The notes under the pieces: model-generated | Seen by the model: only the letters and a program-made list of their open reading frames with translations | Told to the model about the DNA's origin: nothing | The model's database searches: none | Position numbers and translations under genes: made by a program | Shown: positions 12,195-59,577 of the stretch, piece after piece | How positions within the stretch are numbered: position 1 is the stretch's first letter | How the letters are laid out: the number at the start of each line of letters is the position of its first letter | Assembly: GCA_021604705.1 (NCBI GenBank) | Contig: BQJM01000001.1 | Span: forward strand, 72,887-136,886 | DNA: 64,000 nt | Direction of reading: 5' to 3' | From: a marine bacterium B5-7 | Lineage (GTDB): Bacteria > Pseudomonadota > Gammaproteobacteria > BQJM01

Positions 12195-12290
12195 CTGTCA
12201 TCCCGGCCTTGAGCCGGGATCTCCATCTACTGCCGTATTGCCAACACTGTCATCCCGGATATTTTCCTTTGGAAAATTCCGGGATGACAG
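12195..12290. repeat. REP-like palindromic elements (2 copies)
   Basis: CTGTCATCCCGGCCTTGAGCCGGGATCTCC, and a perfect 44-bp palindrome CTGTCATCCCGGATATTTTCCTTTGGAAAATTCCGGGATGACAG. Confidence 0.9.
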
Positions 12291-12309
12291 CTATTAACAT
12301 AACGTATGA

Positions 12310-13494
12310 CTAAAGTTCCAGAGAAAAAATGCATCCCTCTCTATCGCTGTCATCTGATAGATGATGACCATTCGGCGGTGTGCCAGTTGGTGTGCTTTGG
12401 GAGTTCGGGAGTGATAACACAGAATCGTGCACAGTACTTCCTCCAGCCCCCCCCGAAAAAACAAAATTTTCCCGCTCCTCTGAAATACTCAGGCCAGTGG
12501 GATCATTAAGAAGTATGTTTGCATACAAATCTGGAGAAACAGCTGAAGGCGTTTGAACCGTTTTGTCAGTAGATTGAAATGTTTTAATGGCAAAAGTGAT
12601 ATCAGGATTTACGCCATTTTGTTCGTTGTTCATGGGTTTTTGGTTTTCCAAGCAGTGTGAAAATAATTTTTTCGCTATTCTATAGCGATTTATTTGTTTT
12701 TCAAGCCCACGGCTTGATTCCTCAAATAACTGATTCGCTTGTTTTACATAATGATTGCTTGTCAGCATACGAATGGTGCGGAAAGGTTTGCTTAAAACAT
12801 GCGGTAATCGATAACGGCAATGCGCGATGAGTTTATCGACAATGTTTTTTGCTTTATCGAGTGCTTCATTAAACTTTCTCTCATTATTCCGCGCATATTC
12901 ATATTTTAAATATTGTTTGATCTTGAATCGCTTGGTTTTATAGCTTGATGTCTGAAAGGCAAGCTCATCAGTCTTTTCTTTTAGAGATTCGACAATCTCT
13001 TTGTCCAATGTGTAACGATGGTGATGTCGTTGGATACGATCTACTGCGTAGAGAAATTTAATTTCAGGATGTTCTTTTTTAAGCTGTTTTCCAAATGCTA
13101 CATCACTCCGTTTAAACACTTCGCTTGCATCATGATAAATCCTGTCGAGACTAGCATAGCCAGACTCTTTTTTAGGATAGCGGTGAATCTTGGCTGTATC
13201 GGTAAGCACGGGTCTTTCTTGCGCCTCATCCTTTCTTTTTGCCCAGTGGTTCTTGTAGCGATAACGCGCCAAGTTTATATCTACCAAGGGCGAGTGTTTT
13301 TGATCAAGATGCGCGAGTTGATAGAGCGCACTGGCGAGTAAGGCGTTCGGGTGATGCGATTTTTCTTTACTAAGTCGAGGTATGGCGTGCAATACACCGT
13401 TTTTTCCGACGATCTCATACAGCGGTTTGCTGAGCGTAGGGTTTTCGCTTTTCTTCTCGTAGAAAGATTGAATGCTGTTGTTATCTTTTCCCAT
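12310..13494 (-). CDS. hypothetical protein (island cargo)
   Basis: Long ORF on the minus strand with no motif I recognise. Lys/Glu-rich. Confidence 0.4.
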   Translation of the reverse strand: MGKDNNSIQSFYEKKSENPTLSKPLYEIVGKNGVLHAIPRLSKEKSHHPNALLASALYQLAHLDQKHSPLVDINLARYRYKNHWAKRKDEAQERPVLTDTAKIHRYPKKESGYASLDRIYHDASEVFKRSDVAFGKQLKKEHPEIKFLYAVDRIQRHHHRYTLDKEIVESLKEKTDELAFQTSSYKTKRFKIKQYLKYEYARNNERKFNEALDKAKNIVDKLIAHCRYRLPHVLSKPFRTIRMLTSNHYVKQANQLFEESSRGLEKQINRYRIAKKLFSHCLENQKPMNNEQNGVNPDITFAIKTFQSTDKTVQTPSAVSPDLYANILLNDPTGLSISEERENFVFSGGAGGSTVHDSVLSLPNSQSTPTGTPPNGHHLSDDSDREGCIFSLEL

Positions 13495-13668
13495 GACGAT
13501 TGCTTGCTTTTATTATCACTTGGAATCAGTGTATCGCAGCTAGATTAAGGTAATATTAATGTGGAGAGCGTGGCCAATGAAATCATCTGTTGTGCCTCAG
13601 TTGTGCTTGATTTTGAGAAAGATGGCGCTATAATAAGTGCCTAATAAAGGTCTTAATTTGGCACCATC

Positions 13669-13920
13669 ATGCAACATTTACACGCGACACACATTGCTAG
13701 CATTAGCGAGCTGAAAAAGAATCCCTCTAAACTCATCCATAAAGCGGATGGGCGGCCTGTGGCTATTCTCAATCACAATGTTGCGACGGCTTATTTAATT
13801 CCAGCGGCTTTGTTTGAGCAATTGCTAGAGCACATCGACGATCGCACCTTGGAAAAACTGGTATCTGTACGGCTACAAGATAATCAAAAGCCGATTAGGG
13901 TGGATGTGGATGAGCTATAG
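13669..13920 (+). CDS. Phd/YefM-family antitoxin (orphan; no toxin ORF downstream)
   Basis: 83 aa with the Phd/YefM N-terminal motif (IASISELKKNPSKLI...RPVAILNHNVATAYLIP). A palindromic operator overlaps a TATAAT-like box upstream. Confidence 0.8.
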   Translation: MQHLHATHIASISELKKNPSKLIHKADGRPVAILNHNVATAYLIPAALFEQLLEHIDDRTLEKLVSVRLQDNQKPIRVDVDEL

Positions 13921-13960
13921 TCTTCTCTTATTTTAGGTATGATTTAGTTGGGGACTAAGG

Positions 13961-56334: not shown

Positions 56335-56337
56335 ACC

Positions 56338-57792
56338 ATGAAACAAACTGCTGCGGAATTAGCAAAAGCCCTTGCTGCGGGTGAAACCACCAGTGAAAAA
56401 ATCACAGAAAGTTATTTAGATCGCATTGCGCGTATCGATCCTAACTTCAATAGTTTTATTACAGTTTGTAACGATCAGGCGATGCAAGCTGCACGTGAAT
56501 CTGATGAACGCCGTCAAAACGGATCACCAAGAAGTGCCTTGGATGGTGTGCCCATTGCACAAAAAGATTTATTTTGTACGCAAGGTATTAAAACCAGTTG
56601 CGGATCGCGCATGCTAGATAGTTTTGTTTCGCCGTACAATGCGACCTTAATTGATAAATGTAATGCGGCAGGATTAATTATGTTGGGTAAAACCAACATG
56701 GATGAATTCGCGATGGGTTCATCGAACGAGAACAGTTATTACGGTCATGTACGTAATCCTTGGGATACCGATCGCGTGCCTGGTGGTTCATCGGGTGGTT
56801 CAGCGGCGGCAGTGGCTGCACGTTTAGCGCCTTGGGCAACTGGGACAGACACGGGTGGATCGATTCGTCAGCCCGCTGCATTTTGTGGTTTAACCGGTTT
56901 AAAACCGAGTTACGGTTTAGTGTCACGTTATGGCATGGTCGCGTTTGCATCGAGTTTGGATCAAGGTGGTCCCATGGCGCAAACGGCAGAAGATGCGGCA
57001 TTATTGTTAAATGTCATTGCGGGTTTTGACGAGAAAGATTCAACCAGCATTGAACACGACGTGCCGGATTACACCGCAACGTTAAACAATGATTTAAGTG
57101 GCTTAACGGCGGGTTTGCCAGAAGAATACTTTACGGGTGATTTAGATCCGGCGATGGCAGAAGTCATTGAGCAAAGCAAAAAAGTATTGGCGGAGCAGGG
57201 GGTGAGCTTCAAACCGATTAGTTTACCGCGTGCCCATTTAGCGGCACCGGCGTATTATGTGATTGCACCCGCAGAGTGTTCATCGAATTTGGCGCGTCTT
57301 GATGGTGTGCGTTATGGTTATCGTTGCGATAACCCGAAAGATTTATTAGACATGTACTGTCGTTCTCGGGGTGAGGCTTTTGGTGACGAAGTGAAACGTC
57401 GCGTGATGGTCGGTGCTTATGCCTTATCCGCAGGTTTTTATGATGCGTATTACGTGAAGGCACAACAGATTCGTCGTTTAATGAAAAACGATTTTGATAA
57501 AGCGTTTGAGCAGGTCGATTTTATTTTATCACCAACGACACCGTCACCGGCATTTAAATTAGGTGAAAAAACGGGTGATCCAATCACGATGTATTTAAAT
57601 GATGTGTTCACCATTGCCGTGAATTTAGCGGGTTTGCCTGCGTTATCTATGCCTGCAGGGTTTGTGGATGACTTACCTGTTGGCGTGCAATTGATTGGTC
57701 AATACTTTGATGAAGCGCGATTACTCAATGTAGCGCATCGTTATCAACAAAAAACAGAATGGCATCGTGCAATGCCTGATGTGTGTAAGTAA
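56338..57792 (+). CDS. gatA: Asp/Glu-tRNA amidotransferase subunit A
   Basis: Amidase signature [13 protein letters not shown]. Confidence 0.95.
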
Positions 57793-57804
57793 TCGGGGAA
57801 GCGT

Positions 57805-59238
57805 ATGAGTGAGTGGGAAACGGTTATTGGTTTAGAAGTTCACGCGCAGCTGACCACCAAGAGTAAAATATTTTCTGGTGCTTCCATTGCCTATGGTGCA
57901 GAGCCAAACACACAAGCATGTGCGGTGGACTTAGGGTTGCCGGGTGTATTACCTGTGTTAAACCAAGCTGCGGTGCATAAAGCGGTGAAGTTTGGTTTAG
58001 CGGTCGATGCTTTCATTGAGCAACATGCGGTGTTTGCACGTAAAAATTATTTTTATCCTGATTTACCAAAAGGTTATCAAATTAGCCAACTCGATCGACC
58101 GATTGTCGGAAAAGGATCGTTAGATATTCAGTTAGAAGATGGTACGGAAAGGTGCATCAACATTACGCGTGCCCATTTAGAAGAAGATGCAGGAAAATCC
58201 TTGCATGAAGATTACCATGGCATGACCGGGATTGATTTAAATCGCGCAGGCACACCCTTGTTAGAAATTGTTTCTGAGCCAGATTTGCGTTCAGCAGAAG
58301 AGGCCGTCGCTTATTTAAAAACATTGCATGCCTTGGTGACCTATCTAGGTATTTGCGATGGTAATATGCAAGAAGGGTCATTTCGTTGTGACGCCAATGT
58401 ATCGGTTCGGCCAGTGGGGCAAACAGAATTAGGTACACGTTGCGAAATTAAAAACATTAATTCTTTTAAGTTTGTTGAAAAGGCGATTCAGATCGAATCC
58501 GCGAGACAGATTGCATTAATTGAATCGGGCGGCAAGGTTCATCAGGCGACACGTTTGTATGATCCGACAAAAAACGAAACACGCGCCATGCGTAGTAAAG
58601 AAGAGGCGAATGATTACCGTTATTTCCCAGATCCAGACCTATTACCGGTCGTCTTATCTGACGAGTATATCGCCGCAATTAAAGCGGATATGCCTGAATT
58701 ACCTAAAGCCAAATGCGCACGTTTTGAAAAGGATTATGGTTTAAGTGCGTATGATGCGGCTGTATTAACCAGTTCACGTGCATTAGCCGACTATTTTGAG
58801 GCCGTCGTGAAAGCCTTAAATGGCGAAGCCAAGTTAGTCGCTAACTGGGTAACGGGCACCTTAATGGCGGCACTGAACAAAGATGCCATTCGTATTGAAA
58901 ATTCACCAGTGAATGCAGAACGGTTTTCAGGCTTATTGCAACGTATTTTAGACGACACCATTTCTGGCAAGATTGCGAAGACGGTGTTTGATGCGATGTG
59001 GACTGATGATGTTGCTGCCGATGTTGTTATTGAACAAAAAGGCTTAAAGCAAATCGCGGACACCGGTGAGTTAGAAAAAATTGTTGACGAAGTATTAGCG
59101 GCGAGCCCGAAGCAAGTGGAACAATTCAAATCCGGCAATGAAAAAATCATCGGTTATTTGGTTGGCCAAGTGATGCAGAAGACCCAAGGTAAGGCGAACC
59201 CGAAACAGGTGAATGCCTTGTTGAAAGAAAAACTGTAA
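57805..59238 (+). CDS. gatB: Asp/Glu-tRNA amidotransferase subunit B
   Basis: GatB N-terminus [13 protein letters not shown] and the C-terminal YqeY-like domain. Confidence 0.95.
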
Positions 59239-59243
59239 CCTTA

Positions 59244-59577
59244 TTGTCACCCTGGAAAACTACTTGTCATCCTGGCCACCGCTGTCATCCCGCACTTGAT
59301 GCGGGATCCCCATCTATTACCATAGCGTCAACGCTGTCATCCCGCACTTGATGCGGGATCCCCGTCTAGTACCATAGCGTCAACGCTGTCATCCCGCACT
59401 TGATGCGGGATCCCCATCTATTACCATAGCGTCAACGCTGTCATCCCGCACTTGATGCGGGATCCCCATCTATTACCAATGTCATTCCGGCGAAAGCCGG
59501 AATCTCCTGATAGTACTGCGGTACTAGTTAGAGACCCCGGGTCAAGCCCGGGGTGACAGCAGTAAGTGGAATGACAG
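59244..59577. repeat. REP array including a 52-bp tandem repeat (3.7 copies, 59281..59470)
   Basis: Unit GCTGTCATCCCGCACTTGATGCGGGATCCCCATCTATTACCATAGCGTCAAC repeated head-to-tail, followed by TTCCGGCGAAAGCCGGAATCTCC and GAGACCCCGGGTCAAGCCCGGGGTGACAG variants. Confidence 0.9.

Follow-up and report, generated by a model that had tools for sequence, protein, structure and literature searches.

A dense family of CGTC/TGTC-tagged hairpin repeats, probably Ssn-related motifs, in a 64-kb stretch of the marine bacterium B5-7

The repeats that crowd a 64-kb stretch of the metagenome-assembled genome (MAG) of marine bacterium B5-7 (the window, whose coordinates count from its first letter) most probably belong to the CGTC/TGTC-tagged superfamily of repetitive extragenic palindromes (REPs), that is, to the Ssn-related motifs (SRMs), and would be single-stranded DNA (ssDNA) hairpins read by a small GIY-YIG nuclease, Ssn. 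We put the probability of this identity, taken together with the proposed mechanism, at roughly 0.7. About 33 copies were found at 12 loci in 64 kb, or about 0.5 copies per kb. The preliminary description of this DNA had spoken of more than 25 copies of a REP/RPE-like palindrome family and was right on both counts, as the anatomy is that of the CGTC/TGTC-tagged REPs, the superfamily of RPE-4/6 and dRS3 (PMC3733652). The class itself has been on record since 2013 and its protein partner since 2025; the B5-7 family is newly added to it.

The arm CTGTCAYCCCG occurs 20 times in the window against 0.03 expected and the arm CGGGRTCTCC 11 times against 0.06 expected. Two classes of element were distinguished. 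Class A is a short hairpin, the 28-mer GTCAYCCCGNNCTTGANNCGGGRTCYCC, found in 19 copies at no more than three mismatches against 0.00 in shuffles. It consists of an unpaired (T/C)GTC head, an 8-bp stem A-Y-C-C-C-G-N-N, a CTTGA loop (GAAA or GGAA in two copies) and the complementary arm; the first stem pair is A-T, the second is T-A or C-G, and a C follows directly after the stem on the 3' side and runs on as a CTCC tail. Class B has a longer stem of 14-15 bp with an A+T-rich inner part (for example GTCATCCCGGAATTTTCCGAAGGAAAATGTCCGGGATCTCC) and the same head and foot as class A. Its pattern GTCATYCCRGA..TCYGGRAT gave eight strand hits, representing seven elements, with none expected. The stem subtypes GCA/TGC, GGG/CCC, GGC/GCC and the AATTTTCC..GGAAAAT long stem had been named before and all exist; GCG/CGC, GGA/TCC and a GAAA/GGAA-loop type are to be added. 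A linker of 22-24 nt (ATCTAKTACYGYAG...) is conserved as well. The G, T, C and A of the head and the T and C at the 3' foot of the stem are invariant in the 19 aligned copies, and class B copies keep these nucleotides too, the exceptions being the double-headed element at 12247-12290 and the degenerate copies 37519 and 37551. Six copies are truncated or carry indels (27639, 27813, 37475, 37519, 39332 and 59481).

The hairpin is maintained by selection through compensatory change, both in the window and across genomes. In the window alignment, 98.7% of the stem cells are paired and 26 double-sided stem changes were counted against 8.4 in shuffles, with none of 500 shuffles reaching 26. In other genomes, 284 of 292 unconstrained stem positions pair where 178 would be expected (146 hits, among the matches listed), and the Y-R pair is intact in all 146. 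When folded as ssDNA, the short element reaches about -10 kcal/mol with a z-score of about -4, the long one -13, the double-headed one -20.8 and the convergent dimers -21 to -27 kcal/mol; z-scores of the DNA folds range from -3.7 to -10.7.

CGTC-tagged REPs were described by Di Nocera et al. (2013) as carrying a CGTC tag, often TGTC (or CCTC), on a hairpin whose stem of 8-9 bp opens with A-T and closes in a loop of 4-5 nt, with a short tail left unpaired, and they include dRS3 of Neisseria and RPE-4/6 of Rickettsia, the latter equated with CGTC-4/CGTC-1 (PMC3733652). The tag, the 8-bp stem with its A-T start, the 5-nt loop and the unpaired tail are all found in the window family. As in other CGTC REPs, copies form dimers and clusters, lie mostly just 3' of open reading frames (ORFs) and occasionally occur in frame within genes. 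The closest candidate family is CGTC-2-like (PMC3733652), which shares the CGTC/TGTC tag, 8-bp A-T stem, 5-nt loop and unpaired 3' tail; the window family differs in its CTCC(A) tail in place of CCA and in the long-stem variants that form about a quarter of its copies. Rickettsia RPE-4 and RPE-6 are likewise small palindromes of an apparently host-associated bacterium, placed between genes and in frame within them, but their stem, loop and length differ and the host here is a gammaproteobacterial MAG. Long elements of the RPE-1 type (~100-150 bp) are not the form seen in the window. Coxiella QMITE1/2 were suspected first and set aside: the published description held no matching sequence, and QMITE2 carries a GTAG REP.

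The demonstrated partner of CGTC-class repeats is Ssn, a GIY-YIG ssDNA nuclease (PMC11893778). Chenal et al. (2025) reported that the Neisseria NTS and the SRMs flank the genes of SsnA, a 94-aa single-domain GIY-YIG protein, which binds the hairpin solely as ssDNA, on one strand, and cuts a few nt upstream; cutting depends critically on the three bases 5' of the palindrome, and binding on the C 3' of it (PMC11893778). The invariant columns of our alignment coincide with these critical head and foot bases. Furthermore, the published SRM search sequence HGTCWYN(0-2)YYVSBRHN(0-5)WNVSBRGN(0-2)RNCYNB has 14 matches in the window against a mean of 0.14 and a maximum of 1 in 50 dinucleotide shuffles. 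The SRM/NTS and the window family have in common the HGTC head, the A-T/A-C stem start, the C after the stem, the heads-outward pairing, the clustering around non-core genes and a very high copy density. They differ in the head, which is mostly TGTC in the window, in the tail, which is CTCC and not CYRG/CCA, and in the conserved 22-24-nt linker of the window family. The NTS differ further in having a 3-nt MAV loop in place of the 5-nt CTTGA, and only 2% of their copies lie within ORFs, compared with 4 of ~33 in the window; B5-7 is also not known as naturally transformable.

A 25-nt core of the element was scanned against one genome per species and found in at least 120 stretches (matches labelled L0xx below) from Alpha- (sphingomonads), Beta- and Gammaproteobacteria, Patescibacteria, Chloroflexota, Firmicutes, Spirochaetes, Omnitrophota and others, including two Coxiellaceae MAGs. 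As the core is spread over so many phyla, it is no lineage-specific invention. A long-stem variant with the same head and foot was also observed elsewhere (GTCATCCCGGAAATTGCGTAGCAATTATCCGGGATCCA in a Coxiellaceae MAG, L036), and class B is therefore not peculiar to B5-7. A lineage-specific metagenome scan (the core plus TCTCCATCTA) gave no match. Three ORFs of the GIY-YIG family (PF01541) lie directly against SRMs, two of them in L056 and one in L081, where the arrangement is as follows.

L081, 10-34 (plus): SRM
L081, 46-354: GIY-YIG ORF
L081, 369-393 (minus): SRM

The SRMs that flank ssn genes have a 25-nt core identical to that of the window. A profile of these three ORFs was used to fetch 80 metagenomic ssn loci. 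An SRM lies within 150 nt of the gene in 54 of the 80 and on both sides in 29, and the flanking SRMs point their heads outward: upstream, 44 are plus and 9 minus, and downstream, 38 are minus and 6 plus. In the window, heads-outward dimers with a 22-23-nt spacer were found at 22440/22490, 27939/27989, 39332/39379 and 59481/59530, and further convergent pairs are formed by class B elements (27662/27702 and 37320/37360) and by decayed partners beside 20843 and 37436. Since these dimers share the geometry of the ssn flanks, with a spacer in the place of the gene, we infer that they may be miniature derivatives of an SRM-ssn-SRM unit. An ORF between two TCTCC-tailed SRMs of Alteromonas lipolytica (L075) was considered as well and is not an ssn gene.

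The loci of the window are listed below with their strand where one applies.

3701..3729 (+): class A, GGG/CCC, in codons 5-14 of a trbB/virB11-like ORF (2792-3742, minus)
12195..12246 (+): class A, GGC/GCC (12197-12224), with the 22-nt linker ATCTACTGCCGTATTGCCAACA; DNA hairpin of -9.5 kcal/mol, z = -3.8
12247..12290: double-headed palindrome, headed on both strands by CTGTCATCCCGG, with the AATTTTCC..GGAAAAT hairpin inside; -20.8 kcal/mol, z = -10.7
20795..20871 (-): class A, GGG/CCC (20843-20870), linker and decayed convergent partner (~20795-20822), between the secD stop (20776) and the secF start (20918)
21839..21882 (+): class B, 12 nt past the secF stop codon; -13 kcal/mol
22438..22518: convergent heads-outward dimer of 22440-22467 (plus, GCG/CGC) and 22490-22517 (minus, GGG/CCC) with a 22-nt spacer; -27.3 kcal/mol
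22943..22973 (+): class A within the ygfZ-like ORF, antisense translation KETPHQVRGDSG
27639..28016: mosaic cluster after era, a 174-bp unit repeated 1.9 times and then a convergent dimer (27939-28016)
37320..37611: mosaic cluster between two orphan ORFs
39332..39405: convergent heterodimer of a degenerate class A (39332-39358, plus) and a GGAA-loop TTCCGGC type (39379-39405, minus)
59244..59577: cluster between gatB and a 666-aa orphan ORF
59987..60017 (+): class A (core 59989-60017) within the 666-aa orphan ORF, antisense HEIPDQVRDDR, with a counterpart in the homologue P0002 (L123)
60239..60269 (+): degenerate class A (core 60241-60269) in the same orphan ORF, QEIPAQDQDDS; the copy in the L123 homologue is perfect, QEIPDQVRDDS

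Both orientations and the arrays reported in the preliminary description are real, as is the copy between secD and secF. Tandem Repeats Finder returned arrays of 174 bp x 1.9 at 27639-27966, 52 bp x 3.8 at 59280-59478 and 32 bp x 2.7 at 37519-37605. Other points of that description needed adjustment. Further copies lie outside the range 12195-59577 that it gave, at 3701-3729, 59989-60017 and 60241-60269. The supposed nesting at 27639..28016 is a genuine mosaic that proved to be tandemly duplicated, with a long-stem dimer between two truncated short-element heads: each unit of the 174-bp array (27639-27966) combines the 5' half of a class A element, a convergent pair of class B, a head fragment in reverse, one full class A and a linker. 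The cluster at 37320..37611 is composed of a class B dimer (37320-37394), a minus-strand class A element (37436-37463), half of a class A fused to a piece of class B (37475-37515) and a head-to-tail run of three class A copies (37519-37610), and that at 59244..59577 holds two head fragments, an array of four 52-bp units head to tail (59282-59478), a convergent heterodimer (59481-59557) and a last head fragment (59568-59575). The statement that nearly every intergenic region carries an element was too strong: of 22 gaps measuring 90 bp or more, 8 are occupied, and 39.4-59.2 kb is free of elements. Even so, about one quarter of the intergenic DNA of the window consists of elements, and at seven of the eight intergenic loci the start lies 6-66 nt past a stop codon.

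Four copies lie within ORFs, those of TrbB, the YgfZ-like protein and the orphan protein; all are antisense and in one common frame, which gives the peptide E-T/I-P-x-Q-x-R-G/D-D. The ORF-finder start of glnS (ATG at 39401) falls in the head of the reverse-oriented repeat 39379-39405. The exact ORF-finder translation of glnS is absent from the protein collection, and the deposited annotation therefore probably uses another start. Identical 28-mers are dispersed over the window (one set at 3701/20843/22490, another at 22945/27765/27939). Logan contigs identical to the window cover 3701-12224, 12202-20866 and 20845-21868, and all their junctions are within element cores; such breaks are expected of a repeat that interrupts de Bruijn graphs, and since the window itself holds the same 28-mers more than once, they do not independently prove that the family is spread genome-wide. 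A replication-strand bias was also considered, since the non-dimer class A loci of the window are all on the plus (G-rich) strand, and was dropped when the orientation relative to local GC skew was found to be 44 to 46 in 91 loci of other genomes.

A close relative (contigs of ENA assembly ERZ23497041, 89-95% nucleotide identity; L122, L124 and L125 below) was compared locus by locus. The elements are unstable on this time scale and are at least occasionally gained or lost. For example, the copy at 3701 is absent from L124, where the difference is a clean 39-bp in-frame indel (~3686-3724) in the trbB N-terminus. Strain comparison for presence/absence polymorphism had been suggested earlier, and this is the one case that it yielded. 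The dimer 3' of ygfZ (22438..22518) is present in L122 in flipped orientation and with other stem subtypes. At the secD|secF site, where the B5-7 element is of class A, L122 has a head of the class B type, a tentative observation at a contig end. The cluster after era is represented in L125 by one mosaic unit; the gap measures 178 bp against 604 bp, and B5-7 has 465 bp more. By comparison, the class B copy after secF (21839..21882) is identical in L122, and the ygfZ-like copy (22943..22973) is conserved there together with a 42-bp in-frame partial duplication. The elements had been called actively proliferating. The 39-bp indel, the flipped dimer, the 42-bp duplication and the 465-bp cluster difference support mobility or instability, but the term was too strong, as most loci that can be compared are filled in both genomes and one copy does not differ at all. 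That most sites are shared with the relative argues against rampant current proliferation; the elements are dynamic and mostly old. A classical miniature inverted-repeat transposable element was rejected: the convergent dimers would provide inverted ends, yet the empty-versus-filled site at 3701 has no target-site duplication.

The YgfZ-like ORF (22546-23250, minus; 234 aa) aligns with E. coli YgfZ in two blocks and lacks ~73 central residues, with the repeat-coded stretch at the junction; the relative's version has 249 aa. A simple in-frame insertion in ygfZ was thus ruled out, because the SRM-coded stretch sits where the ~73 residues of E. coli YgfZ are missing. The 644/666-aa orphan protein (59593-61593, minus) is 35% identical overall to its only homologue (L123 1564-3300) and near-identical over the acidic segment around the repeat peptides (ALEAQESITP..QEIP.Q..DDSDDDQFVDAVEDL), which suggests, from the alignment, a repeated coding module larger than the hairpin. 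For the 518-aa orphan flanked by clusters no homologue was found. In L122, two AAA_14/DUF4143 ATPase genes and a 276-aa ORF lie between secF, ygfZ and sdhE (1318-3177 and 4475-5710), and these insertions are absent from the corresponding positions of the window (~22170 and ~23250-23600).

The anatomy, the covariation, the motif match, the ssn-flanking geometry and the polymorphism against the relative form the established part of the explanation. In the mechanism that we propose, by analogy with the Neisseria NTS and their relatives, the module would fold into a hairpin whenever its DNA becomes single-stranded, as in replication, repair, conjugation or DNA uptake. The nuclease Ssn (cd10448), a small GIY-YIG protein of one domain, would bind just one of the strands and nick it a few nt 5' of the head; the cognate enzyme would be encoded elsewhere in the B5-7 genome, outside the window. 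The family may have spread from SRM-ssn-SRM units and would now be mostly resident, and the convergent heads-outward dimers with their 22-23-nt spacer would be gene-less miniatures of such units. The elements would act as ssDNA cleavage sites and could be hot-spots of local rearrangement, giving rise to tandem duplication, flipping and small in-frame indels, also within genes.

Several observations weigh against this mechanism. No ssn gene was found in the 64-kb window by phmmer (with an E. coli YhbQ query), by a hidden Markov model of the three ORFs or by a motif regular expression, and of the 7811 GIY-YIG proteins that a profile search returned, the best 120 were all sphingomonad-like, with none from B5-7. 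The heads of ssn-adjacent SRMs are CGTC in 88 of 97 cases, whereas those of the window are mostly TGTC, and the window tail is CTCC where CCA/CCCG is common. Changing the stem sequence with the hairpin kept abolished the activity of Neisseria SsnA (PMC11893778), so that the stem sequence matters and it is not evident how one enzyme would serve all the stem subtypes of the window as well as class B. Mobilisation of SRMs by Ssn is unproven in the literature. In addition, no target-site duplication accompanies the 39-bp trbB indel, whose left edge lies ~15 nt upstream of the head and not ~3.

A further step would be to regard the heads-outward dimers as non-autonomous mini-transposons that arose from SRM-ssn-SRM units and that the GIY-YIG nuclease moves on ssDNA. 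We consider this doubtful. Its footprints would be the 39-bp trbB insertion, the flip of the dimer downstream of ygfZ and the swap of hairpin type at secD|secF, and a single enzyme would have to read the conserved head and foot only and tolerate very different stems.

Among the competing explanations, the one that fares best, though we hold it unlikely, is that the elements are orphan relics, members of the SRM family whose cognate nuclease has been lost and which persist passively, changing by slippage, recombination between copies and decay. No ssn gene lies within the window, many copies are truncated or degenerate (27639, 37475, 37519, 39332 and 60241, with decayed partners at ~20800 and ~37400), and host recombination could account for most of what separates B5-7 from the relative, namely duplications, a flip and size changes; Di Nocera et al. 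moreover proposed that CGTC families are perhaps heading for extinction (PMC3733652). Relics would not readily account for the identical 28-mers at the dispersed loci 3701/20843/22490 and 22945/27765/27939, nor for the clean 39-bp presence/absence difference within trbB. The head and foot are strictly conserved even in long-stem copies with wholly different stems, which argues for a continuing sequence-specific constraint.

A role at the RNA level, as terminators or as 3' mRNA-stabilising hairpins selected for that purpose, is improbable. It would fit the start of seven of the eight intergenic loci 6-66 nt past a stop codon, a position that Di Nocera et al. also describe for REPs at large (PMC3733652), and it would fit the stability of the hairpins (-9.5 to -27 kcal/mol). 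The earlier suggestion of terminators fails on the absence of a T/U tract after any copy (the tails read CTCCATCTA and similar) and of any element flagged as terminator-like in a scan of 12000-31900. The copies also lie in both orientations relative to the upstream gene and within ORFs, and conservation extends to the unpaired bases of head and foot, beyond what a mere hairpin would need. No Rfam family was matched on the elements in a gathering-threshold scan of the whole window or in an E-value scan of 20700-28200, and SsnA does not bind the RNA form (PMC11893778).

Still less credit can be given to the view that these are REP/REPIN elements of the GTAG type, moved by a tyrosine transposase of the RAYT (TnpA-REP) kind, the partner that the preliminary description had suggested. 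Short extragenic palindromes, often in inverted pairs, do resemble REPINs, and the GTAG REPs/REPINs of E. coli and Pseudomonas share with the CGTC class a tagged short hairpin, inverted doublets and a gene for an ssDNA-specific enzyme flanked by the repeats. The tag, however, is C/TGTC on one side with C-TCC on the other and no GTAG/CTAC at the hairpin foot; the enzyme of the CGTC class is of GIY-YIG and not HUH/Y1 type. Pfam scans of the window ORFs over 64 kb found no transposase, Y1/HUH or GIY-YIG domain, and hence no Y1_Tnp match or RAYT. Unlike GTAG REPs, CGTC REPs have no associated RAYT or other transposase, and a RAYT gene flanked by CGTC REPs was reported in no species (PMC3733652); the genes actually flanked by the 25-nt core are GIY-YIG genes. 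That the repeats are landing pads of site-specific mobile elements (insertion sequences (IS) of the IS110/IS1111 family or filamentous phage) is very improbable, for even though Neisseria dRS3 is described in the literature as the target of a phage recombinase and Coxiella IS1111 as inserting in the GTAG REPs of QMITE2, Pfam scans of the window found no IS, integrase or prophage at any of its 12 loci, and a target role would leave the multiplication of the repeats unexplained.

The window otherwise has ordinary chromosomal gene content in the Pfam and gene scans, including a Trb/VirB-type type IV secretion system, tgt-yajC-secD-secF, lepA-rnc-era, glnS, mla genes, mreBCD, gatCAB and several orphan ORFs. 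The following features were also located.

13669-13920: small PhdYeFM-type antitoxin gene in a 466-bp 'gap', called on the identical Logan contig
14656-17444: FRG-domain protein adjoining an ATPase_2/AAA_14 protein
41281-42828: Fic-domain protein
42863-42937: tRNA-Thr(TGT) gene
43401-43504: thiamine pyrophosphate (TPP) riboswitch preceding the thiE-thiM-thiL-thiD operon

SecF and the 644/666-aa orphan protein match GenBank proteins of the B5-7 MAG exactly, and the proteins GJM06347-GJM06400 come from this contig. B5-7 is an unclassified, probably host-associated gammaproteobacterium; SRM-rich genomes are enriched in symbionts according to Chenal et al. (PMC11893778). A 2.8-kb contig of a third assembly (GCA_041166445.1, JBFPED010191657.1; L129) is 99.2% identical to window 8277-11081, and close strains of B5-7 therefore occur in other data sets.

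Other repeats were observed in the window besides the hairpin family. A second, unrelated repeat of ~95 nt is present in three window copies (23340-23430, 28050-28180 and 45825-45960) and also at L123 3295-3430. Terminal inverted repeats of 18 bp (GGTATTCYTTTCAAAAAC ... GTTTTTGAAAAGAATACC) enclose a G+C-rich hairpin (CGGCGGCTATCCCTGCCGCCG), after which comes a T-run; one copy was called terminator-like, and L125 of the relative lacks the one at 28050-28180. A 31-bp tandem repeat (ACAAAATCGGAGTATACTCCGAAAATGGCGT, 1.9 copies, 23478-23536), each unit of which contains a small palindrome and then a T-run, lies in the 5' end of an sdhE-like ORF, for which the ORF finder gave a TTG start at 23451 and the Sdh5 domain begins at residue 54. 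The hexanucleotide ATCCGC is repeated 16 times at 36899-36995 within a 779-aa orphan ORF (34835-37174, minus), where it must encode a dipeptide repeat.

As a discovery the family carries little weight, since the class has been known from 2013 and its protein partner from 2025. For annotation it means that several ORF starts and short peptides are repeat-derived and that short-read assemblies break at the elements. If the heads-outward dimers were indeed mini-transposons, Ssn would be the long-missing mobilising enzyme of the CGTC REPs and would bring a new transposition chemistry, based on GIY-YIG and not on HUH or DDE. To the class, B5-7 adds a very SRM-dense and probably host-associated gammaproteobacterium, and together with its relative it offers natural filled, empty, flipped and duplicated sites in which the insertion junctions of CGTC REPs/SRMs can be read.

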